Shown in pieces: positions 1 to 37,272 of a stretch of DNA of 64,000 nucleotides. The notes under the pieces were generated by a model. It saw only the letters and a list, made by a program, of their open reading frames with translations, made no database searches and was not told where the DNA came from. The DNA lies in sequence record OM632671.1. One strand, 5' to 3'. Position numbers and translations under genes: made by a program. This stretch comes from Escherichia phage BEU50. Numbering within the stretch: position 1 is the first letter of the stretch; the number at the start of each line of letters is the position of its first letter.

Positions 1-161
1 TTAATCCTGATTTAGTTGTTGTACAGAAAAACTGGACCGAATTTTTATGCTACACTGAAGTGGTTTACGTTTACGAAAAACTCGGCGATGAAATGCCTAT
101 CTATGGTATCTTCCGTGAAATCACTGAAAACGGTACAACTTATTGGAAGGAAACTTACTAA
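1..161 (+). CDS. 3' end of unidentified upstream gene (partial; start lies outside window)
   Basis: Open frame from window edge to TAA at 159-161; stop overlaps next ATG (TAATG). Confidence 0.45.
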
Positions 162-574
162 TGGCTAATAAATTCCGCGTTAACTCATGGTACCAATTTA
201 AAGATAAACGTGCCCAAGAAGAGTTTATTAAAGACCACACTGATAATGGGATTTATGCACGACGTCTTGGCATGGAACCATTTAAAGTATTAGATGTTGA
301 CCATCTTGGTCGTCCTACTAAAATTGTGACATCTACTGGCATGGTTGGATACGCAACAGGCGGTGATATCCTTGATGAAAACTTTATCTGGCTCTCCACG
401 AATGAAGCAGAGTTCTTTGACGAAGTTGGAAATCCATATCAAGAGTCTAAAGAGCAAGATTCTGGTGAACTTGACGAATTGTCTGAATTTCCGGTGATGA
501 CGATTACTATCGAAAATAACGACCAGGCATGGTCTTTGTATCAAATGTTGAAAGCTCACTTTAAGGAACAATAA
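161..574 (+). CDS. hypothetical protein (137 aa)
   Basis: Same frame as ORF-track 143..574 (TTG start); ATG at 161 overlapping upstream stop preferred; no recognisable domain. Confidence 0.55.
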
Positions 575-753
575 TGCCGTTATACGACTATAAATGTCAA
601 TCTGAAGATTGTGGTCATGAATATGAAAAAATTAAAAGAATTTCTGAACGAGAAAACGATGTTTGCCCTGAATGTCATCGTCTGTCTACTCGTCGGGTTT
701 CTGCTCCTAAACATGTGAACGGTGGTTTTTACGACTTACTTAAGAAGGGTTAA
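574..753 (+). CDS. small zinc-ribbon protein, FmdB-like (59 aa)
   Basis: Not in ORF track (<60 aa); [18 protein letters not shown]...VCPECH with two Cys pairs; ATG overlaps preceding stop (TAATG). Confidence 0.5.
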   Translation: MPLYDYKCQSEDCGHEYEKIKRISERENDVCPECHRLSTRRVSAPKHVNGGFYDLLKKG

Positions 754-755
754 TT

Positions 756-1181
756 ATGGCTTTTAAAGGTTTTGAAGTTGGTAAGAAATATCGTATTATC
801 AAAGGACAAGAAGATAATTTCTTGAGAATTCTTAATACGACTGGTAAACGTCTTAATACTAATCTGCATACTACTTTATTGTCCAAAGATTTTATTGTGG
901 AAGAGATGATTGGTTACGGTGTTTCGATGATTGCTGTAGAAGCCGTAGGCGATTATGGCCGAACTATTCATAGTATGCAAGGTGATATTCTGCTTTATGG
1001 TGCAGAATTTAAATTCTTTGAAGAAGTTCCGGAACCAGATACAGCTGTCGATTTCAAAAAAGGCTCTATAGAATTTGTTGATGGTTCGGTGATCGTATCA
1101 GGCGATGTGGTCATTACAGTTAAAAGTGAACAAGGGCGTTTAGCTGCAATTGATGCACTTCAGAAAATTAAATTTAAATAA
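756..1181 (+). CDS. hypothetical protein (141 aa)
   Basis: ORF track; tightly packed upstream of gene 39; no recognisable domain. Confidence 0.55.
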   Translation: MAFKGFEVGKKYRIIKGQEDNFLRILNTTGKRLNTNLHTTLLSKDFIVEEMIGYGVSMIAVEAVGDYGRTIHSMQGDILLYGAEFKFFEEVPEPDTAVDFKKGSIEFVDGSVIVSGDVVITVKSEQGRLAAIDALQKIKFK

Positions 1182-1199
1182 GGGCTTAGGCCCTTTTTG
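1181..1199 (+). terminator. rho-independent terminator candidate
   Basis: AGGGC-TTAG-GCCCT hairpin followed by TTTTT immediately after stop at 1181. Confidence 0.5.
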
Positions 1200-1222
1200 C
1201 TTTAGATTTTGGATGATAGAAT
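1196..1222 (+). promoter_or_regulatory. MotA-type middle promoter candidate for gene 39
   Basis: TTTGCTTTA MotA-box-like element, 12-nt spacer, TAGAAT -10, about 22 nt before ATG 1245. Confidence 0.4.
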
Positions 1223-1244
1223 ACCTTCATAACGAGGAGACAAC

Positions 1245-3065
1245 ATGATTAAAAATGAAATTAAGGTATTGTCAGATGTAGAACATATTAAGAAACGTAG
1301 TGGTATGTATATTGGTTCTTCTGCTAAAGAAGCACATGAGCGTTTTTTGTTTGGTAAATATCAACAAGTTGAATATGTTCCTGGTCTGGTTAAATTAATC
1401 GATGAGATTATTGACAACTCGGTTGATGAAGCTATTCGTACATCATTTAAGTTTGCAAATAAAATTGATGTGCAAATTAAAAATAATCAAGTTTCGGTGG
1501 AAGATAACGGACGTGGTATTCCTCAAGGTTTAGTTACCGACCAAACGGGTGAACAAATTCCTGGGCCTGTAGCAGCCTGGACTATTCCAAAGGCTGGTGG
1601 TAACTTTGGTGATGACTCTGAACGCAAGACTGGTGGTATGAACGGTGTAGGGAGTAGTTTAACTAATATCTTCTCTACGTTGTTTACAGGCATCACGTCA
1701 GATGGCGAAAATGAAATCACTGTTAACTGTTCAAACGGAATGGAAAACAAATCATGGTCTTCTAAGAAATCTAAAGGTAAAGGCACTAAAGTAATCTTCA
1801 CTCCTGATTTCTCTTCATTTGAAGAGCATAATTTATCTCAAATTTATTTAGATATTACTTTAGACAGACTTCAAACATTGGCAGTCGTTTATCCTGATAT
1901 CAAGTTCACATTTAATGGTAAAAAGGTTGATGGTAATTTTAAACGATTTGCTAAACAATTTGGTGAAGATAACATCATTCAAGAAAATGATAAAGTCTCT
2001 ATAGCATTCACAACATCACCAGATGGCTTCCGTCATTTAACTTATGTGAATAACATCCATACTAAAAATGGTGGCCATCATGTTGAATGTGTAATGGATG
2101 ATATCTGTGAACATCTTTTGCCGGGTATTAAAAAGAAATATAAGGGTATTGAAGTCACTAAAGCTCGTGTTAAAGAATGCCTCACAATGTTGATGTTTAT
2201 TAGAGACATGAGCAACATGCGTTTTGATTCTCAGACTAAAGAACGTTTAACGTCAACGTATGGTGATATTCGTAATCATATCCAATTAGATGCTAAGAAA
2301 ATTGCTCAGGCACTTCTTAAAAACGAAGCCTTGATTATGCCTATTGTTGAAGCAGCATTAGCTCGTAAATTGGCAGCAGAAAAGGCTGCAGAAACTAAAG
2401 CAGCTAAAAAGGCGACTAAAGCTAAGGTTCATAAGCATATTAAAGCTAACCAATGTGGTAAAGATGCAGATACGACATTGTTTTTAACAGAAGGTGATTC
2501 GGCAATTGGTTATCTCATTGATGTTCGTGACCGTGAACTACACGGCGGATTCCCATTACGTGGTAAGGTGATGAATAGCTGGGGTATGTCATATGCTGAT
2601 ATGATGAAGAACAAAGAGCTCTTTGATATCTGTGCTATCACAGGTCTTATTCTTGGTGAAAAGGCAGAGAATACGAACTATCGTAATATTGCAATTATGA
2701 CCGATGCCGATCATGACGGTCTTGGAAGTATCTATCCAGCTTTGCTTGCTTTCTTTAGTAATTGGCCTGAATTGTTTGAACAAGGACGTATTCGCTTTGT
2801 TAAAACGCCTGTAATTATTGCACAAATTGGCAAAACTCAAAAATGGTTTTATACTGTAGCTGAGTATGAAGAAGCTAAAGATACACTGCCTAAGCATAGT
2901 ATTCGATACATCAAGGGATTGGGCTCACTTCAGCGAGATGAATATAAAGAAATGATTCAAAACCCTGTGTACGACGTAGTTAAACTTCCTGAAAATTGGA
3001 AAGAACTATTTGAAATGCTCATGGGTAACGACCCTGAACTCCGTAAAGATTGGATGCTAGGATAA
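1245..3065 (+). CDS. 39: DNA topoisomerase II large subunit, ATPase (uninterrupted 606-aa form)
   Basis: GHKL ATPase motifs DEIIDNSVDEA and EDNGRGIP; T-even gp39 family; 606 aa, i.e. not split into 39 and 60. Confidence 0.9.
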   Translation: MIKNEIKVLSDVEHIKKRSGMYIGSSAKEAHERFLFGKYQQVEYVPGLVKLIDEIIDNSVDEAIRTSFKFANKIDVQIKNNQVSVEDNGRGIPQGLVTDQTGEQIPGPVAAWTIPKAGGNFGDDSERKTGGMNGVGSSLTNIFSTLFTGITSDGENEITVNCSNGMENKSWSSKKSKGKGTKVIFTPDFSSFEEHNLSQIYLDITLDRLQTLAVVYPDIKFTFNGKKVDGNFKRFAKQFGEDNIIQENDKVSIAFTTSPDGFRHLTYVNNIHTKNGGHHVECVMDDICEHLLPGIKKKYKGIEVTKARVKECLTMLMFIRDMSNMRFDSQTKERLTSTYGDIRNHIQLDAKKIAQALLKNEALIMPIVEAALARKLAAEKAAETKAAKKATKAKVHKHIKANQCGKDADTTLFLTEGDSAIGYLIDVRDRELHGGFPLRGKVMNSWGMSYADMMKNKELFDICAITGLILGEKAENTNYRNIAIMTDADHDGLGSIYPALLAFFSNWPELFEQGRIRFVKTPVIIAQIGKTQKWFYTVAEYEEAKDTLPKHSIRYIKGLGSLQRDEYKEMIQNPVYDVVKLPENWKELFEMLMGNDPELRKDWMLG

Positions 3066-3862
3066 TGAATTATCGTAAAATTTATGATAAACTTATCGCT
3101 GCGGCTAAAAACCGCAGCATTATTCCTAATTATACTGAGACACATCATATATTGCCAAAATCTATGGGTGGGAGTAATGATAAATCAAATCTAGTTAAAA
3201 TGACCCCTAGAGAGCATTTTATCGCCCATTTATTGCTTTATAAAATTCATAAGAACCGTTCTATGCTTATGGCTATTAGAGCTTTTTACATGGGAGCTAG
3301 AAATTCTAGAGATTATGATTGGCTTAAACAAGAATTCTCTAAAGAGCACTCTAGATTTATGAAAGAATGGATTGCTAAAAACGGCAACCCATTTAAAGGT
3401 AAAAAACATACTAAAGCAACAAGAGAATTAATGTCACATATTGCTTCACAACGTATAGGCGAATTAAATCCATTTTATGGTAAAACTCATACGCAAGAAG
3501 CAATAGATAAAATAATACAGGCCAACAAGTTATCTTGGGAGAATGGGCGAAAAGCACCTGTAAAAACAAAAGAACACCAGGATAAAATAACTAAATCAAG
3601 AATGGAAACATTTAAAACAAAAGGATTTAAACCATACACTCCTAGGTCGGAAGAAACTAAAGCTAAGACTAGAGAGTTGTATAAATCTAAATATGAAAGA
3701 AGGCCTATAAGAATCACAAGTGTAAAAACAGGTGAAACTATTGATTTTAACTATCTTTATGAATTAAGAGAGTATTTAGATATAGGGTCTTCTAATATAT
3801 TGAAAGCATTAAATAATCCTAACAGAACCTGCAAAGGTTATAAAATGTGTTGGATGTCCTAA
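3065..3862 (+). CDS. HNH homing endonuclease (mob-type, free-standing)
   Basis: HNH motif HHILPKSMGGSNDKSNLV; repeated GK-HT helix motifs; ATG at 3065 overlaps gp39 stop; ORF-track start 3050 is TTG. Confidence 0.8.
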   Translation: MNYRKIYDKLIAAAKNRSIIPNYTETHHILPKSMGGSNDKSNLVKMTPREHFIAHLLLYKIHKNRSMLMAIRAFYMGARNSRDYDWLKQEFSKEHSRFMKEWIAKNGNPFKGKKHTKATRELMSHIASQRIGELNPFYGKTHTQEAIDKIIQANKLSWENGRKAPVKTKEHQDKITKSRMETFKTKGFKPYTPRSEETKAKTRELYKSKYERRPIRITSVKTGETIDFNYLYELREYLDIGSSNILKALNNPNRTCKGYKMCWMS

Positions 3863-3890
3863 GCTCCTTCGGGAGCTTCATTTTAATTTT
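3862..3890 (+). terminator. rho-independent terminator candidate
   Basis: AGCTCC-TTCG-GGAGCT hairpin followed by T-rich tract. Confidence 0.55.
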
Positions 3891-3904
3891 AATAAGGCTT
3901 AATT

Positions 3905-5005
3905 ATGAAAGTTATGTTTATCCCATCTCGTGCAGTCCCATTTAATCCTGACCGTGTACAAGGTGGTCTTGAAGCGGTTCATTTGAACGTGTTGAAATAT
4001 TTAGTTTCTATCGGTGCCGATATTGATTATATCGGCTTTGATAATGACACGTTTGGTGACTGGAAAGTTACACACCATCCTGTTGGTCATCTGACTAAAT
4101 TCAGTCTAGGTATGAGTTATACTATGGCTCGTAAGATTGTTGAACTAGCCGGCATCCATGAATACGATTTTGTTGTTACTATGGAACCGACTAAACTAAC
4201 CGTTCAGGCAATTAAAGACGCAGGTCTCTCTAAAGTTCATAAGAATTTTATGGCAACACCATTTGAACCAGTATCTCGTGGCATTGTTCAAATTTGGGAC
4301 CAGACTATTCAAATTCATAAGAATGGCGGTAAGAGTTATGCTCCTACTAAAGCCTTCCGTGAATTTGAACGCAAATATTGTTATATGACTTCAGGTCTGA
4401 CTGACAAAATCGATTATGATTATTGGCGAGCAAATCCGTTGTTTGAAGCCGAAGATTATCCGGTTATTTGTTTGACTGAAAAGCCAGAAGTTCTCCCGGC
4501 AACTGATTTGATTATTAGTGCTCAACGTTATGACACTAAGATGCGTCGCACTGATGTTGCTCTTGAAGCAATTAAAGCACTAGGCGAAAATGGTGTAGGA
4601 TACTGTCCTAGTAAATGGGCACCACCAGCTAAATATCCTGTTATTATTGATGCTCCACACAGTGAAATCATGGAACGTCTTAAAACAGCTAAAGCACTTA
4701 TTAATACGTGTCCTGACACAGGTACGGTAGAGAATAGTTCTATTGAAGCCATCTCTAAAGGTGTCCCTGTAATCCAGTTAGTTTTTAAGGATTATCCTCA
4801 TGCGACATTTGAATACGACCCAGATACTGTGCGTGTAGAAATTGATTCCTCTACTCCTAAGAAAGAAGTAGTTGCGCTTTACACAAAAGCTGTATTAGAA
4901 TTCACTGACACATACGAAGCTCGAGTTAAACGTGCTGAAGCAGTATGGAAGAAGTATAATCGAGATGCAGTTGTTGCGATGTGGGATAAAATCTTCACAG
5001 CGTAA
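3905..5005 (+). CDS. hypothetical protein, possible GT-B-fold glycosyltransferase (366 aa)
   Basis: ORF is solid; function weak: N-terminal MKVMFIPSR...GGLE and C-terminal ENSSIEAISKGVPVI resemble GT4-type motifs. Confidence 0.6.
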   Translation: MKVMFIPSRAVPFNPDRVQGGLEAVHLNVLKYLVSIGADIDYIGFDNDTFGDWKVTHHPVGHLTKFSLGMSYTMARKIVELAGIHEYDFVVTMEPTKLTVQAIKDAGLSKVHKNFMATPFEPVSRGIVQIWDQTIQIHKNGGKSYAPTKAFREFERKYCYMTSGLTDKIDYDYWRANPLFEAEDYPVICLTEKPEVLPATDLIISAQRYDTKMRRTDVALEAIKALGENGVGYCPSKWAPPAKYPVIIDAPHSEIMERLKTAKALINTCPDTGTVENSSIEAISKGVPVIQLVFKDYPHATFEYDPDTVRVEIDSSTPKKEVVALYTKAVLEFTDTYEARVKRAEAVWKKYNRDAVVAMWDKIFTA

Positions 5006-5097
5006 ATCCTGAATAGCCTGAGGCACTATTACACATAAGATGATAGATTATATGGTCTTTAGTAATAGTGCCCTAGGAATCTACTGAAGAGAATATT

Positions 5098-5298
5098 ATG
5101 AGAACATATAACGTGGACTTGGAACTTTTTGATAAAGCAGTGCTCCGGGAATTCCGGCTTATCCAAAGATTTTTTGATATCGAATCAGCAGAGTCCTTTA
5201 AAGAACGCTTTAAAGAAATTCGATATAAAATACAAACCGATACAGCTACTAAAGAAGAACTTCTTGAAGTAGCAGAAATTTTTAAACGTAACTTGTGA
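5098..5298 (+). CDS. hypothetical protein (66 aa)
   Basis: ORF track; immediately upstream of rIIA. Confidence 0.45.
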   Translation: MRTYNVDLELFDKAVLREFRLIQRFFDIESAESFKERFKEIRYKIQTDTATKEELLEVAEIFKRNL

Positions 5299-5310
5299 TG
5301 AGAGAAAAAC

Positions 5311-7368
5311 ATGATTATCGAAACGGCTAAAGAAACGATTATTGGTTCTGGTGGTAAGAGCACAGCATTCACTATTCAAGGCAATAGCAAAGTTTATAAG
5401 ATTTTGTCTAATGACCTTTATACAAACAAAGAATTGGCTTGTGTACGTGAATTAATCACAAACTGTATCGATGGACAAATTCTTAATGGTTGCACTGATA
5501 AGTTTATTGTTCAGGCTCCAGGTCGTTTAGACCCACGTTTTGTAGTTCGAGACTTTGGTCCTGGTATGAGTGATTTCACCATTCGAGGTAATGACGAAGA
5601 GCCAGGAATCTATAACTCATATTTTGCTTCAACTAAAACATCGAGTAATGATTTCATTGGTGGATTCGGACTCGGCTCTAAAGCTCCATTAGCATATACT
5701 GATACGTTTAACATTACTTCTTATCATAATGGTGAAGTTCGTGGTTATGTAATTTATCAAGATGACAGTGGTCCACAAATTAAGCCAACCTTTGTAGATA
5801 AGATGGGCCCTGATGACCGTACGGGTGTAGAAGTAGTTGTGCCTGTTAACCCGGAAGATTTTGAAAAGTTCGCATCTGAAATTGCGTATGTTATGCGTCC
5901 TCTCGGCGATATTGCAGAAGTTCGTGGTGTTAAAGATATCAAATACTTCCCGGAATTCGATGATGTTTATTTAGCCAAGGAAGCTCCATGGGGTGAACGT
6001 GGTAATATCATGGCTGTTTATGGTGGTATTGTATATCCAATCGGAAGTGTTATTAAAGAACAAACATGGATGATGACGCGATGCACTACAGCTTATATCA
6101 AATTCCCTATGGGTGAACTAGATGTAGCCCCGTCTCGTGAAGCATTGTCATTTGATAAACGTACAGTAGCAAATATTCATAAACGTGTTGCAGAAATTGA
6201 TGCAAAATTATTTGCTGAAGATTCTAAGAAATGGATTGATTGTGAATATCCACGTCATGTATTCCGTGAAATCGATTCTCTTGGTTACTCTGCTCGTAAA
6301 TACATGGAAAAAGCCGGTTCTAATATTGAATCACTGAAATATTCTAAAGAACAACTAACTTATTCTGAGTTGTACAAACGTTTTAAAATGGGACCTGAAT
6401 GGTGCAACCTTGGCGTTGTATATGATATCGTTTCAGATCCACGACTTCGTCGTATTCGTGAAAGCGGAAGCTCGTCTGCAACTATTTCAATTAATAGCCT
6501 GCTAGGTATTAGTCGTAAGCATATTGATATTGTTATTGACGATGTGAAAGGCCGCGTACCAATGATGCGTGCTCTGAACGATGCTTTGACTTCCACCGAT
6601 GCATCAACACTCGTTGATAAGGTTCCTTCCGGACGGGGTAGTAGCGTATTATTCATTAACCCGGAAGATGAAGTTGCAATGAAACTTCTGGAACGATTAA
6701 AGGTTATTTTCGCTGGTGATAGCCTTAAATTTTATAAGACCTCTGAAATTCTTGCATTAGTTAAACCATGGATTGAAGTTAAAGAACGTTCATCGCAGCC
6801 TCGTCCTAAATCCCCAAGTGCTCATCGGTTCTTTAAGAATGAAAACGATGTTTGGGTATCAGAAGATCTCTTTATTCCGGCCGGTAAAGCTGATGAGATT
6901 CAAGGTTATGTTGTAATTCGTAATCGTTCTAACGCTGAATGTCTTGACGCAGATAAAGGTTGGTTGAACTATGATTCTAATTTCTTGACTCGTATTGCTG
7001 ATTTGTCAGGTATTAAAGAGTTCACTGTAGTCCGTCCACAGATTGCTAAGAAAGTTCGTAAACTTGGTGAAGTAGAATGCTTGTTCGAAAAATCAATTAA
7101 TGACTATATTACGCTAATTGATAAAGTGGATTATGATGAGTATGTATCACCAAGTCGTAGAGCACAGCCTTATTTGAATCATATTACTCGTAACGAAGAG
7201 CTTAACTTCCTTAGTAAGTATTTTAGCTCTAAGAACAAAGAAATCAGTAAAGACTTTGCAAAACTCTCAACAGTAAATAATCGCTGGGGATGGAATCGAT
7301 TCGCAGGTGCTGATAACAGAGACCTGAACAGGAAGTTAGAATTGTGCTTAAAGAGGACTCTTTTGTAG
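5311..7368 (+). CDS. rIIA: rIIA membrane-associated protein with GHKL ATPase domain
   Basis: ELITNCIDG and RDFGPGM GHKL boxes; N-terminus typical of T-even rIIA; 685 aa (T4 rIIA recalled as about 725 aa). Confidence 0.85.
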
Positions 7369-8436: not shown

Positions 8437-8898
8437 ATGACTATCAACACAGAAGTTTTTATCCGTCGAAATAAGCTTCGTCGTCACTTTGAGTCGGAGT
8501 TTCGTCAAATTAACAATGAGATTCGTGAGGCATCAAAAGCAGCAGGGGTCTCATCGTTTCATCTAAAATATTCTCAGCATCTTCTTGATCGTGCAATTCA
8601 ACGGGAGATTGATGAGACATATGTTTTTGAATTATTCCACAAAATAAAAGACCATGTTTTAGAAGTTAATGAATTCCTGAGTATGCCTCCGCGTCCTGAC
8701 ATTGATGAGGATTTTATTGATGGGGTTGAATACCGTCCTGGACGTTTAGAAATCACAGATGGAAATCTTTGGCTTGGATTTACAGTTTGTAAACCTAATG
8801 CGAAGTTCAAAGACCCGTCGCTTCAATGCAGGATGGCAATTATCAATAGTCGTCGTTTACCAGGAAAGGCTTCTAAAGCAGTAATTAAAACTCAATGA
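8437..8898 (+). CDS. regB: RegB site-specific endoribonuclease
   Basis: 153 aa, N-terminus MTINTEVFIRRNKLRRHFESEF matches T4 RegB family. Confidence 0.85.
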   Translation: MTINTEVFIRRNKLRRHFESEFRQINNEIREASKAAGVSSFHLKYSQHLLDRAIQREIDETYVFELFHKIKDHVLEVNEFLSMPPRPDIDEDFIDGVEYRPGRLEITDGNLWLGFTVCKPNAKFKDPSLQCRMAIINSRRLPGKASKAVIKTQ

Positions 8899-8905
8899 GG
8901 TAAGC

Positions 8906-9451
8906 ATGAGAAAAGCACTACTCGCTGGTCTATTGGCCATTTCAATGATGGCACATAGCTCCGAGCATACTTTCAGTAATGTCCAACTCGATAACATGCG
9001 TTACGCGTATCAATTCGGGGAACAATTTTCTAAGGATGGAAAATATAAAACACACAAAAACATCCACAAGAGCGGATTGGGTCATATAATGGCTGCTATT
9101 TTGTGGCAAGAAAGCTCTGCCGGAGTTAATTTAAAATCTAAACCAAAGCATCACGCCTACGGAATGTTCCAAAATTATTTGCCTACTATGCGAGCGAGAG
9201 TTAAGGAACTTGGTTATAATATGACCGATGCTGAAATAAAAAGAATGTTGAATAAACGATCCAATTCAGCTTCCTGGGCGTACATTGAACTTTCTTATTG
9301 GTTAAATATACATAAGGGCGATATAAGAAAAGCAATATCCTCTTATAATTCGGGATGGAATGTTAAAGCAGGTTCTAAATATGCTTCTGAAGTCCTAGAA
9401 AAGGCTAATTACCTTAAAAATAATAAACTTTTGGAAATAGTAAATGACTAA
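8906..9451 (+). CDS. secreted/periplasmic protein with signal peptide (vs.1-like position)
   Basis: N-terminal signal peptide MRKALLAGLLAISMMAHS; WQESS motif; positional analogue of T4 vs.1. Confidence 0.6.
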   Translation: MRKALLAGLLAISMMAHSSEHTFSNVQLDNMRYAYQFGEQFSKDGKYKTHKNIHKSGLGHIMAAILWQESSAGVNLKSKPKHHAYGMFQNYLPTMRARVKELGYNMTDAEIKRMLNKRSNSASWAYIELSYWLNIHKGDIRKAISSYNSGWNVKAGSKYASEVLEKANYLKNNKLLEIVND

Positions 9452-9785
9452 AATTTTGGTTTTATGTATAGGATTAATTTCATTTTCTGCGTTAGCAGAT
9501 ACATCATATACTGAAATTAGAGAGTATGTAAACCGTACTGCAGCGGATTATTGCGGGAAAAATAAAGCATGCCAAGCTGAATTTGCGCAGAAATTAATAT
9601 ATGCATATAAAGACGGAGAAAGAGATAAATCAAGCAGATACAAAAATGATACATTGTTAAAACGATATGCTAAAAAGTGGAATACCTTAGAATGTTCAGT
9701 TGCGGAGGAGAAAGATAAAGCCGCTTGTCATTCAATGGTTGACCGTTTAGTAGATTCTTATAATCGAGGATTGAGTACTAGATGA
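9444..9785 (+). CDS. small secreted protein with signal peptide
   Basis: Signal peptide MTKILVLCIGLISFSALA; Cys-containing mature part. Confidence 0.5.
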   Translation: MTKILVLCIGLISFSALADTSYTEIREYVNRTAADYCGKNKACQAEFAQKLIYAYKDGERDKSSRYKNDTLLKRYAKKWNTLECSVAEEKDKAACHSMVDRLVDSYNRGLSTR

Positions 9786-10261
9786 TTGTAAAATATATCA
9801 AGGGCGATATTGTCGCCCTATTTCTTCAAGGTAATATTATTGCGCACGGGTGCAATTGCTTCCACACAATGGGCTCTGGCGTAGCAGGTCAATTAGCAAG
9901 AGCCTATCCCAAAATTTTAGAAATAGATAAAACCACTACCGAGTACGGTTCTCGTGATAAATTAGGCGATATGTCTATTGTTTTTAAACATAGTCCTACG
10001 GGATTTGGTATATGCTATAACCTGTATACACAATACGAACCGGGTCCTAATCTTGATTATGGTGCTTTAGTAAACTGCATGATAGAATTAAATCTACAGG
10101 CAGAAACCCTTTTGTTTAAACCAGTAATTTACATTCCACGCATAGGTTGCGGTATTGCTGGTGGTGATTGGGATAAGGTTTCTAAATTAATCGACATGTT
10201 TACTCCTGATATTGATTTAATAGTGGTGGATTATGAAAGTACATTACCCGCATCCGTTTGA
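9782..10261 (+). CDS. macro-domain protein (ADP-ribose binding/processing)
   Basis: AHGCNCFHTMGSGVAGQLA and IPRIGCGIAGGDW resemble macro-domain Gly-rich phosphate-binding loops. Confidence 0.6.
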   Translation: MIVKYIKGDIVALFLQGNIIAHGCNCFHTMGSGVAGQLARAYPKILEIDKTTTEYGSRDKLGDMSIVFKHSPTGFGICYNLYTQYEPGPNLDYGALVNCMIELNLQAETLLFKPVIYIPRIGCGIAGGDWDKVSKLIDMFTPDIDLIVVDYESTLPASV

Positions 10262-18205: not shown

Positions 18206-18340
18206 TCCTGAGTCATCTTTTGTGAAAATTGTTTTATCTTTTAAGTTTATAGCCAATTCACCTTCGGCTAATACTGAAGCAGCAGGACGTTGACCTGCAG
18301 TTTTGCTTCTTTTAAATTGTATTTGTTTTAAAGTAGCCAT
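18206..18340 (-). pseudogene. 37: distal long tail fibre gp37, N-terminal 44-codon fragment
   Basis: Minus-strand [45 protein letters not shown] matches T4 gp37 N-terminus, then diverges and stops within 6 codons. Confidence 0.7.
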
Positions 18341-36279: not shown

Positions 36280-37272
36280 ATGTTACCTGTCGTCGGAAAA
36301 CTTATTTCTCCAAAAGAACTGGCTGAGATTATTCCTTTGTCGGAAGCTTACGCATCACAAGTGGCTTCTCATCGCGAACAAGTTAATTCGATTATGAACG
36401 GTGAAGACCCACGCAAACTTATTGTTGTAGGTCCTTGTTCAATTCATGACCCTATTGCTGCTGTTGAATACGGCAAACGTTTGGCTGAACTTCAAACTCG
36501 TCTTCCTAATGTTCTGTTAGTGATGCGCGTTTATTTTGAAAAGCCTCGAACTACCGTAGGTTGGAAAGGTCTTGTAAATGATCCATATCTTGACGGAAGT
36601 TTTGATATGAACCACGGTCTTATAGTTGCACGAACATTGTGTCGTAAACTTCTACGTATGGGACTTCCATTAGCAACTGAAGTATTAGACCCATTCACGA
36701 TTAAGTATCTTTCTGGTATTTTCTCATGGGTTGCTATTGGCGCCCGTACGACTGAAAGTCAGACACATCGTGAAATTGCTTCAGGTCTACCGATGTGCGT
36801 AGGCTTCAAGAACGCAACCAATGGTTCTATTAAAGTAGCTACAGACGCGATGTATAGTGCCGCCTGGCCTCATCGGTATATGGGTATGGACGTCGATGGT
36901 ACTGTAGGCATTGTTGAAGCTGAAGGTAATCAGAATACGCATATCGTATTGCGTGGCGGGACCAACGGCCCGAACTATCATTCTTCTGATATTCAAGAAG
37001 CTTCTAACAAAGCAAGTGCAGTAGGTCTGAATCATTATGTAATGGTTGACTGTAGCCATGCAAACGCTGCTGGGCATTATAGCAATCAAATTGGTATTGG
37101 TAAAAATTTAGCAGCTAATGATTTGGTCAAAGGAATTATGATAGAATCATTCCTACATGAAGGAAATCAAAAAATTTCTGATAATATGTCCTATGGCGTT
37201 TCCATTACCGATGCGTGCATCAGTTGGGAACAAACTAAAGAGCTGTTAACTTATATTAATAAGGTTCAATAA
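36280..37272 (+). CDS. 3-deoxy-D-arabino-heptulosonate 7-phosphate (DAHP) synthase, class I (AroG/AroF/AroH-like)
   Basis: Hallmark motifs VVGPCSIHD, EKPRTTVGWKG, GARTTESQ, DCSHAN, ESFLHEGNQ, SITDACI; about half of residues appear shared with E. coli AroG. Confidence 0.85.
   Translation: MLPVVGKLISPKELAEIIPLSEAYASQVASHREQVNSIMNGEDPRKLIVVGPCSIHDPIAAVEYGKRLAELQTRLPNVLLVMRVYFEKPRTTVGWKGLVNDPYLDGSFDMNHGLIVARTLCRKLLRMGLPLATEVLDPFTIKYLSGIFSWVAIGARTTESQTHREIASGLPMCVGFKNATNGSIKVATDAMYSAAWPHRYMGMDVDGTVGIVEAEGNQNTHIVLRGGTNGPNYHSSDIQEASNKASAVGLNHYVMVDCSHANAAGHYSNQIGIGKNLAANDLVKGIMIESFLHEGNQKISDNMSYGVSITDACISWEQTKELLTYINKVQ

Follow-up and report, generated by a model that had tools for sequence, protein, structure and literature searches.

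The question raised by this locus is what acceptor and which sugar are handled by a probable glycosyltransferase encoded between gene 39 and rIIA of Escherichia phage BEU50. T-even phages protect their DNA from restriction enzymes, CRISPR-Cas and DNA glycosylases mainly by coating its cytosines with sugars, and the number and type of the sugars decide which of these defences still work. The gene lies in a stretch of 64,000 nucleotides (sequence record OM632671.1), the whole of which is referred to here as the window, and the original prediction had offered it as a possible DNA-modifying enzyme while calling the assignment weak. That caution no longer applies, for the gene has carried a published name, RB69 ORF003c, since 2018 (PMC6024577) and encodes an already known enzyme of RB69-type phages, with a solved crystal structure. 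Our reading, to which we give a probability of about 0.8, is that it encodes the accessory, or ‘second’, DNA arabinosyltransferase of the RB69-like phages (Mosigvirus).

The open reading frame is complete, starts with ATG and runs from 3905 to 5005 on the forward strand, giving 366 amino acids plus a stop codon as read from the window sequence; its orthologs include RB69 ORF003c/gp3 and the glycosyltransferase of phage HY126. The protein starts with MKVMFIPSRAVPFNPDRVQGGLE, and residues 272–290 contain TGTVENSSIEAISKGVPVI; the coordinates, the length and these two motifs had all been quoted beforehand and were all found in the sequence. A Shine-Dalgarno-like AAGG (3894–3897, forward strand), read directly from the sequence, is located 7 nt before the ATG. 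Further upstream, a GC-rich hairpin, AAGCTCC-TTCG-GGAGCTT, followed by a T-rich tail (3861–3878, forward strand), was returned as a terminator-like site in a consensus scan. This hairpin is found just 3′ of a homing-endonuclease ORF and 27 nt 5′ of the start codon, and phage SF has this stretch too, immediately behind its gene 39, with the SF alignment resuming at window position 3851; it may represent a terminator or an RNA-stability element. A promoter scan gave 9 sites against 8.7 expected from shuffled sequence, which is no excess.

When the codons were compared with those of four other copies, the synonymous to nonsynonymous differences were 27:1, 45:5, 46:7 and 23:0, in a comparison where nonsynonymous sites are about 3.5 times as numerous as synonymous ones, and dN/dS is roughly 0.01–0.04. 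The 366-aa frame is under strong purifying selection and, with a PHROG match, more than 150 Mosigvirus records that hold it intact, these codon ratios and its conserved motifs, it is far beyond chance.

The placement between gene 39 and rIIA was correctly recognised at the outset; gene 39 is upstream, and rIIA.1 and rIIA are downstream. Gene 39, for the topoisomerase II large subunit (1245–3065, forward strand), matches Pfam DNA_gyraseB, HATPase_c and TOPRIM_C, encodes a 606-aa product of the fused 39+60 form and shares 97% DNA identity with the SF gene annotated ‘DNA topoisomerase II large subunit’. A 794-bp insertion, not mentioned in the original prediction, separates gene 39 from the target and carries the homing-endonuclease ORF with its HNH motif and NUMOD3 (3065–3862, forward strand; Pfam NUMOD3, E = 4.7e-9); in the alignment, window positions 3057–3850 have no counterpart in the reference phage SF. 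The target gene has 97% DNA identity to, and the same position as, SF gp190. It is followed by rIIA.1 (5098–5298, forward strand; Pfam T4_RIIA1) and rIIA (5311–7368, forward strand), the latter encoding a product of 685 aa, compared with 737 aa in SF. This RB69-like (Mosigvirus) T-even segment is collinear with SF up to 7346, and a mosaic junction at about 7347 shortens rIIA; further apparent junctions of the window are at about 18206–18237 and about 30208. As a whole the window is a mosaic of Mosigvirus and Tequatrovirus sequence, probably a chimeric assembly; it is far less likely to be a real recombinant bringing the arabinosyltransferase gene into a genome with T4-type segments. RB69 is reported to be isolated in recombination, and a natural hybrid of this kind would be striking.

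Nor does the window encode the enzymes with which the protein would work. With tblastn, none of the genes for the 5hodCMP synthase, the UDP-arabinose pathway and arabinosyltransferase 1 was found within the 64-kb window, and in the 97%-identical phage SF they occupy 91850–98403, about 20 kb upstream of the target gene. In reference genomes of Mosigvirus, too, the gene is about 20 kb away from the other modification genes in their operon, which bears out the suggestion of a non-canonical locus.

The HY126 glycosyltransferase (PDB 9IQZ for the apo form and 9IR0 with UDP), RB69 ORF003c/gp3 (NP_861693) and SF gp190 are practically the same protein as that encoded in the window, with the same length, 99% amino acid identity over the full length and the same position between gene 39 and rIIA.1. 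The HY126 chain differs at 4 of the 366 residues, all of them conservative substitutions (Y158H, G163A, T190N and S316F), and in the window the homing-endonuclease ORF is inserted just upstream. The protein matches PHROG 8302, annotated as ‘unknown function’, over residues 1–366 of 366 (E = 4e-222). The search against glycosyltransferase HMMs that had been proposed for this protein gave no model above threshold: no Pfam family was returned, even at E ≤ 10, and no match was found in NCBIfam, while 12 family members searched against Pfam gave only the sub-threshold matches GT4-conflict (0.0028), Glyco_trans_1_4 (0.013) and Glycos_transf_1 (0.048). No curated threshold is reached for CAZy GT4 or Pfam Glycos_transf_1 (PF00534), and the protein does not belong to either by HMM. 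A profile search of PDB sequences matched 9IQZ only, a word-indexed search of 5.8 billion proteins returned 5 clusters, and an exhaustive HMMER profile search of 1.84 billion representatives returned 11 proteins. The family is thus isolated in sequence space.

The fold is clearer than the sequence relationships. An earlier AlphaFold run on a 6-sequence alignment had a pLDDT of 60, with residues 108–188 disordered and a TM of only 0.5 to the true structure; addition of six more distant members, to give a 12-member family alignment, raised the pLDDT to 92.5, with a pTM of 0.88. The resulting model superimposes on 9ir0 and 9iqz with a TM of 0.95–0.97, and the other top fold matches are all GT4-type GT-B enzymes, with BGluT, BshA, PimA and MshA next in order. 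Structure prediction and fold search therefore uphold the GT-B-like layout originally proposed; on the model, the protein has a GT-B fold with GT4 enzymes as its nearest cellular structural neighbours. That it binds a UDP-sugar is suggested indirectly by its 99% identity to 9IR0, which is titled ‘with UDP’.

Both motifs picked out originally are conserved across the family, at G20, G21, E276, S279, E281, A282, G286, P288 and V289. The first, G20-G21-L22-E23 (codons 3962–3973, forward strand), forms a glycine-rich loop of the N-terminal Rossmann-like domain, between strand 2–6 and helix 21–35 of the model; all four residues are invariant in close homologs and G20 is at least 90% conserved in the 12-member alignment. 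From its topology, the loop would be equivalent to the GT4 ‘GG’ loop. GT4 enzymes also carry an R/K-x5-K motif, to which we liken R208 to R214 (R-x5-R; codons 4526–4546, forward strand), which follow the first strand of the C-terminal domain in a loop between strand 203–206 and helix 216–229 of the model. R208 and R214 are invariant in all 12–13 family members, and the loop is predicted to bind the diphosphate of UDP. Finally, G273 to V289, GTVENSSIEAISKGVPV (codons 4721–4771, forward strand), correspond to the putative donor-binding helix (277–284), followed in the model by strand 289–294. Here, in the 12-member alignment, T274, E281, A282 and G286 are invariant, and conservation reaches 90% or more at G273, E276, S279, V287, P288 and V289. 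The likeness of this segment to the GT4 donor-binding helix is borne out by family conservation and by the model, with E281 as the second Glu of EX7E, the motif found in the C-terminal domain of GT4 enzymes. The canonical EX7E is nevertheless absent, as the residue eight positions before E281 is not Glu but G273 (at least 90% conserved), and E276-x4-E281 is found instead.

The cellular GT4 enzymes PimA, BshA, MshA, WaaG, sucrose-phosphate synthase and tetrahydrobiopterin glucosyltransferase share only 10–14% identity with the protein, which also differs from them in the replaced first Glu of EX7E, in its proposed acceptor, a sugar on duplex DNA, and in its proposed beta-linked product. The acceptor might instead be something other than DNA, such as a small molecule, a lipid or sugar of the host envelope, or a protein of the phage or its host, with the link to DNA arabinosylation being coincidental. 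Indeed PimA, BshA, tetrahydrobiopterin glucosyltransferase, sucrose-phosphate synthase and WaaG, the nearest structures, use lipids, small molecules and sugars, the Mosigvirus gene is unlinked from the modification operon, and the protein is mildly acidic (net charge −3, pI 6.3) and not an obvious DNA binder. Yet the family is limited to genomes that carry the arabinose pathway, and its Acinetobacter homologs sit within the arabinosylation operon and, as a pair, lengthen the arabinose chain on DNA in vitro (PMC13326640), making a non-DNA acceptor very improbable.

The chemistry of the DNA in this lineage points towards arabinose. The modified base in the Mosigvirus lineage is 5-hydroxycytosine and not hydroxymethylcytosine, and the sugar is D-arabinofuranose and not glucose (PMC13326640, PMC13390438). 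The DNA of RB69 and of Mosigvirus NP contains mono- and di-arabinosylated 5-hydroxy-dC, in a mono:di ratio of 1:4 in NP, and the second Araf is beta-1,3-linked by NMR. Like 5hodCMP synthases, the thymidylate-synthase homolog of the reference Mosigvirus has the D169N signature (MRSQN against QRSVD). The idea of a DNA-modifying, anti-restriction enzyme of this fold has thus stood, but not its hydroxymethylcytosine substrate, since the DNA of the lineage contains arabinosylated 5-hydroxycytosine.

Implicit in the original prediction was a lineage-specific glucosyltransferase acting on hydroxymethylcytosine as a functional analogue of the T4 alpha- or beta-glucosyltransferase. The T4 enzymes (1Y6F and 1C3J, respectively) are likewise phage GT-B enzymes that decorate modified cytosines after replication, and a UDP-sugar donor and the evasion of host nucleases are common to both systems. 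Their acceptor and donor, 5-hydroxymethylcytosine and UDP-glucose, do not fit Mosigvirus DNA, which has arabinose on 5-hydroxycytosine without the hydroxymethyl group, nor does the thymidylate-synthase homolog, with its N at the ThyA D169 position. The protein has no Pfam match to the T4 alpha- or beta-glucosyltransferase families or to any other, it is structurally nearer to the cellular GT4 enzymes than to those of T4, and its family co-occurs strictly with the UDP-arabinose pathway. A glucosyltransferase is consequently the least credible of the readings considered here.

If the enzyme is an arabinosyltransferase, the issue becomes which arabinose it adds. RB69 ORF003c was proposed as an arabinosyltransferase in 2018 (PMC6024577), as the first, base-proximal enzyme that places arabinose directly onto the modified cytosine. 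A second transferase, predicted to be of the GT-B type (RB69 gp46:47, PMC13326640; SF gp151) and termed arabinosyltransferase 1 or GT1, adjoins the 5hodCMP synthase in every arabinosylation operon. It belongs to the same pathway and presumably uses the same donor, but is shorter (299 aa), has no detectable sequence relationship to the target family (hhalign probability 0.1%) and has been put forward as the enzyme that forms the alpha linkage to the base. It is also more widely spread than the target (arabinosyltransferase 2) family, being found in 348 phage records against 211. The pathway enzyme is in 373 records, and about 140 records hold the UDP-arabinose pathway and the operon transferase without any member of the target family. 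Thanatos, which is mono-arabinosylated with a single arabinosyltransferase, has the operon-type enzyme only, and members of the target family have been shown to act on DNA that is already arabinosylated (PMC13326640). Against this evidence a base-proximal role for the window protein is improbable.

The distribution of the family favours the accessory enzyme. It is confined to genomes with the UDP-arabinose pathway, and its 211 records comprise 155 of Escherichia/Shigella phages with near-identical copies (at least 95%, taken as Mosigvirus-type), 55 of Acinetobacter phages and one labelled Tegunavirus. With gp39 found at 95% identity or more in 143 records and the target gene at that level in 144, essentially every Mosigvirus record has it, whilst the pathway and GT1 occur without the family in Klebsiella, Serratia, Yersinia, Erwinia, Proteus and JS98-like phages. 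In five Acinetobacter-phage loci a tandem pair of family genes is joined to the arabinosylation operon, which consists of A5P isomerase, NTP-transferase-kinase, HAD, TS homolog, GT1 and kinase genes. There is one family copy in the di-arabinosylated Mosigvirus and two in the tri-arabinosylated DLP3, with none in the mono-arabinosylated Thanatos (no Shewanella record appears among the homolog matches). This phyletic and copy-number pattern therefore points to a chain-extending role, the addition of a second arabinose, and the window protein would most likely catalyse the mono-to-di step.

The accessory arabinosyltransferase would be a soluble, two-domain GT-B enzyme, with the UDP-sugar in the cleft between the Rossmann-like domains, held by the R208-x5-R214 loop and the helix with E281. 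Once the DNA had been replicated and a different transferase, unrelated in sequence and encoded outside the window in the arabinosylation operon that lies between the genes for DNA polymerase and uvsX, had added the first sugar, it would transfer D-arabinofuranose from phage-made UDP-arabinofuranose to O3 of the alpha-arabinofuranose already on O5 of 5-hydroxycytosine, giving beta-D-Araf-(1→3)-alpha-D-Araf-5-hydroxy-dC. The thicker sugar coat would alter which host nucleases and other defences act on the DNA. We infer both the roles of the individual residues and the stereochemical course. GT4-like folds are usually retaining, and a beta product alongside an alpha first sugar from the same donor counts against the second-transferase reading, as do the missing EX7E, the lack of a glycosyltransferase HMM at threshold, the absence of the other pathway genes from the window and the mosaic nature of the window itself; with a beta-linked product, a retaining GT4 mechanism cannot be assumed for the family.

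The closest biochemical precedents are gp76 and gp77 of DLP3, arabinosyltransferases 2 and 3 (Maestro 077/078; Acj61 p070/p076), which belong to the same family with 41–43% identity from end to end and have R208, R214, T274, E281, G286 and other invariant residues in common with the window protein. They use UDP-Araf on arabinosylated 5-hydroxycytosine DNA, and together, but not singly, they add one arabinose to arabinosylated RB69 DNA in vitro, whereas the role of RB69 gp3 (RB69p003, ‘beta-arabinosyltransferase 2’) is a proposed one, absent from the entries marked ‘confirmed experimentally’ (PMC13326640). The DLP3 genes are a tandem pair inside the operon, unlike the single, unlinked Mosigvirus gene, and the reaction demonstrated for the pair is the addition of the third (beta-1,5) sugar. 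With each DLP3 enzyme inactive alone, a lone Mosigvirus enzyme working by itself would be an extrapolation. Furthermore, the two Acinetobacter paralogs stand at the same distance from the Mosigvirus protein (41–43%), so that orthology to the ‘second-sugar’ enzyme specifically is not readable from sequence, and the 56% identity between the paralogs places the Acinetobacter duplication after the split from the Mosigvirus lineage.

For the window the value of the analysis lies in a correct annotation, that of an accessory DNA arabinosyltransferase, for a gene that most of the approximately 150 Mosigvirus records still list as ‘hypothetical protein’ and whose homolog is wrongly labelled ‘DNA alpha-glucosyltransferase’ in some Acinetobacter phages. 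This raises no new question beyond those under study in the 2025–2026 literature, but is relevant to the choice and engineering of therapeutic phages, to phage sequencing and to the enzymology of DNA glycosylation. Because the Mosigvirus enzyme is co-orthologous to gp76 and gp77, which are active in vitro only as a pair, we also put forward, as a tentative and rather unlikely proposal, that it is a homo-oligomer, and that the two proteins which arose by the later duplication function only as a hetero-oligomer, its regiospecificity having changed from beta-1,3 to beta-1,5. If true, the family would provide a compact natural example of how the chain length and linkage of a DNA glycan evolve through a duplicated ‘extension’ transferase, and the di- to mono-arabinosylated ratio of about 4:1 would be explained by a non-processive, possibly sequence-context-dependent enzyme.

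The glycosyltransferase gene, which occupies the position of ORF003c in RB69, lies on the plus strand at 3905..5005, running from an ATG at 3905 to a stop codon ending at 5005 and encoding 366 aa, as had been predicted. The protein starts with MKVMFIPSRAVPFNPDRVQGGLE and has TGTVENSSIEAISKGVPVI at residues 272–290, the two motifs from which a glycosyltransferase had been proposed. An AAGG Shine-Dalgarno-like element is found 7 nt 5' of the ATG, and a GC-rich hairpin with a T-rich tail (3861–3878) lies 27 nt 5' of the gene. The neighbours are also those expected, with gene 39 upstream (1245..3065; a fused 39+60-type topoisomerase subunit of 606 aa with GyrB, HATPase and TOPRIM_C domains) and rIIA.1 (5098..5298) and then rIIA (5311 onward) downstream. 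A NUMOD3/HNH homing endonuclease ORF (3065..3862, plus strand), whose ATG overlaps the stop codon of gene 39, separates that gene from the glycosyltransferase gene; it is encoded by 794 bp of extra DNA (3057–3850) with no counterpart in the reference Mosigvirus phage SF. The corresponding region of T4 is occupied by the mobA/gene 60 cassette. Read from the sequence, the intergenic region before rIIA.1 holds a perfect 11-bp inverted repeat, GGCACTATTAC at 5022–5032 and GTAATAGTGCC at 5062–5072, with a 29-nt spacer.

That the ORF is a genuine gene is clear: PHROG 8302 matches the full protein (E = 4e-222), and over 150 phage records hold an intact copy. Against four other copies, synonymous and nonsynonymous codon differences number 27/1, 45/5, 46/7 and 23/0, over some 243 synonymous and 855 nonsynonymous sites, a dN/dS of roughly 0.01–0.04. 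At an identity of at least 95%, gene 39 occurs in 143 records and the glycosyltransferase gene in 144, and the latter appears to be universal in Mosigvirus, the RB69-like T-even genus. In Mosigvirus, 'hypothetical protein' is the annotation of most copies and 'ATP-binding protein' that of one; several homologs from Acinetobacter phages are labelled 'putative DNA alpha-glucosyltransferase', a name at odds with the reported arabinose chemistry of these phages. In Shigella phage JK45 (MK962757, 1501–3104) the gene is intact, and a partial copy repeating its last 395 nt follows in tandem, with an annotation of its own as a hypothetical protein; the record is classed as Tequatrovirus, yet the gene is of Mosigvirus type and lies between gene 39 and rIIA.1.

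Positions 1–7346 of the window are collinear with Escherichia phage SF (RB69 group) at 97% DNA identity. The window as a whole is not contiguous Mosigvirus DNA, being a Mosigvirus/Tequatrovirus mosaic with junctions at 7347, ~18206–18237 and ~30208. The outer parts (1–7346 and 30209–64000) are 94–98% identical to SF, whereas 7348–30208 matches SF patchily, at only ~75–92%, and Tequatrovirus (T4-like) phages at 96–98%. Two blocks make up this middle stretch, drawn from genome regions that are not adjacent: vs.6–tk–partial nrdD in the first, and genes 36–34, rnh, nrdA and nrdB in the second. The first junction, which is spanned by none of 50,697 phage genomes, cuts rIIA short (685 aa versus 737 aa) and fuses it to a T4 vs.6 (GrcA-like) gene. 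Tequatrovirus matches to the rnh/nrdA block cover ~18–19 kb against ~12 kb of query. In SF the rnh–nrdA interval contains genes 59, 32, frd and td; that of the window holds no size-matched ORF for them. Gene 32 is essential in T4. The most likely explanation of the mosaic is that phages of a mixed sample were assembled into a chimera. A real Mosigvirus/Tequatrovirus hybrid, if true, would be remarkable given the reported recombinational isolation of RB69.

The gene is already described and its structure is solved. Arabinose replaces glucose in RB69 DNA, and ORF003c was proposed as a GT-B-fold arabinosyltransferase via custom HMMs, HHpred and Phyre2, with homologs in JS09 and Shfl125875 and two copies in the Acinetobacter phages Acj61 and Acj9 (Thomas et al. 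2018, PMC6024577). The modified base is 5-hydroxycytosine, not hydroxymethylcytosine, with 5hodCMP produced by a flavin-dependent thymidylate-synthase homolog; RB69 DNA contains alpha-D-Araf-5hodC and beta-D-Araf-(1->3)-alpha-D-Araf-5hodC, and Acinetobacter phage DLP3 a third, beta-1,5-linked arabinose (Lee et al. 2026, PMC13326640). RB69p003 is there named 'beta-arabinosyltransferase 2' and the operon-encoded gp46:47 (transferase 1) is the proposed first transferase, both roles standing outside the entries marked as experimentally confirmed (PMC13326640). DLP3 gp76 and gp77, which are homologs of the window protein, jointly put the third arabinose from UDP-Araf on RB69 DNA in vitro, each being inactive alone (PMC13326640). 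The Durham-collection paper gives a mono- to di-arabinosylation ratio of 1:4 for Mosigvirus NP (PMC13390438). As Mahler et al. (2025) are relayed in PMC13216743, Bas46 without 'the arabinosyltransferase Aat', which may be either transferase, is sensitised to a plasmid-borne defence.

A PDB chain is 99% identical to the window protein, with four substitutions; the entries are 9IQZ, 'phage HY126 glycosyltransferase', and 9IR0, 'phage HY126 glycosyltransferase with UDP', both released on 2025-07-16. For structure prediction the family alignment was enlarged from six to twelve sequences with distant members from an exhaustive profile search. The six-sequence model was poor (pLDDT 60), and that from twelve (pLDDT 92.5, pTM 0.88) has the GT-B fold of the original prediction. 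By sequence the family is very isolated. Pfam, searched up to E <= 10, and NCBIfam give no match to the protein, and the family profile finds nothing besides 9IQZ among PDB sequences; a word-indexed search of 5.8 billion proteins returned 5 clusters, and 11 proteins came from the exhaustive profile search, which covered 1.84 billion representatives. The twelve members match GT4-conflict, Glyco_trans_1_4 and Glycos_transf_1 in Pfam, all sub-threshold (E = 0.003–0.05). Invariant residues are G142, V196, R208, R214, N267, T268, T274, E281, A282, G286, Q291, E303, P306 and R340. In the predicted model the loop that follows the first C-terminal-domain strand holds R208 and R214, and helix 277–284 holds E281. 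By topology rather than coordinates, we take the arginines to correspond to the GT4 R/K-x5-K diphosphate-binding pair and E281 to the second Glu of EX7E; the canonical motif is not kept, since G273 stands eight residues before E281.

Operon context, phyletic pattern and copy number make it likely, at a probability of about 80%, that the enzyme is a chain-extension transferase, most likely adding the second sugar and not the first. At five Acinetobacter-phage loci, between DNA polymerase and gp41, the family forms a tandem pair directly after the arabinosylation operon (A5P isomerase (SIS), NTP-transferase-kinase, HAD, TS homolog, transferase 1 and kinase). Among phage records the NTP-transferase/kinase occurs in 373, transferase 1 in 348 and the family in only 211, comprising 155 near-identical (at least 95%) Escherichia/Shigella copies, counted as Mosigvirus-type, 55 from Acinetobacter phages and one labelled Tegunavirus. 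The pathway and transferase 1 occur without the family in Klebsiella, Serratia (LC53, 92A1), Yersinia TG1, Erwinia, Edwardsiella, Proteus, Kosakonia and JS98-like coliphages. Family copies parallel the reported sugar number, with none in mono-arabinosylated Thanatos, one in di-arabinosylated Mosigvirus and two in tri-arabinosylated DLP3; Thanatos has a single ara-GT (PMC13326640), and no Shewanella record is among the family matches. Between transferase 1 and the family, hhalign detects no relationship in sequence (probability 0.1%).

The Mosigvirus protein stands about equally far from the two Acinetobacter paralogs (43% and 41% identity), whose mutual identity is 56%; the duplication is therefore later than the split, and sequence cannot show orthology to the second-sugar enzyme. 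Since the linkage is alpha for the first sugar and beta for the second, presumably from the same donor, one of the two GT-B enzymes must be inverting and the other retaining; the fold does not tell which is which. No other arabinosylation-pathway genes are found within the 64-kb window; those of SF lie ~20 kb upstream of the gene, at 91850–98403. A DAHP_synth_1-family gene (36280..37272, plus strand; Pfam E = 6e-75) adjoins dCMP deaminase, its SF counterpart being labelled 'phospho-2-dehydro-3-deoxyheptonate aldolase'. This Pfam family includes KDO8P synthases, users of arabinose-5-phosphate, which is also the metabolite that the phage diverts into UDP-arabinose.

In the Acj9-type locus IMGVR_UViG_650627005 the first paralog (8846–9963) is split by a frameshift into frames 8846–9412 and 9406–9963, which may mean that one extension enzyme was lost naturally or that there is an error in the sequencing, and the operon is rearranged, with TS, GT1 (transferase 1) and kinase ahead of isomerase, NTP-transferase and HAD. 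The split of the first Acj9 copy was noted by Thomas et al. (PMC6024577). The record named for Tegunavirus, a Yersinia-phage genus, has a homolog placed by elimination in the <60% identity class, and would take the family outside the phages of Mosigvirus and of Acinetobacter.

The TS homologs of the reference Mosigvirus and of Maestro have Asn at the ThyA D169 position, within MRSQN, versus QRSVD in the genuine thymidylate synthase of the same phage. This Asn is the 5hodCMP-synthase signature (Lee et al., PMC13326640), which makes 5hoC rather than hmC the acceptor lineage. The original interpretation of the gene as a DNA-modifying glycosyltransferase is essentially right. The useful correction concerns chemistry and step: the sugar is arabinofuranose, not glucose, the base is 5-hydroxycytosine, not hmC, and the residue added is most likely the second, not the first.
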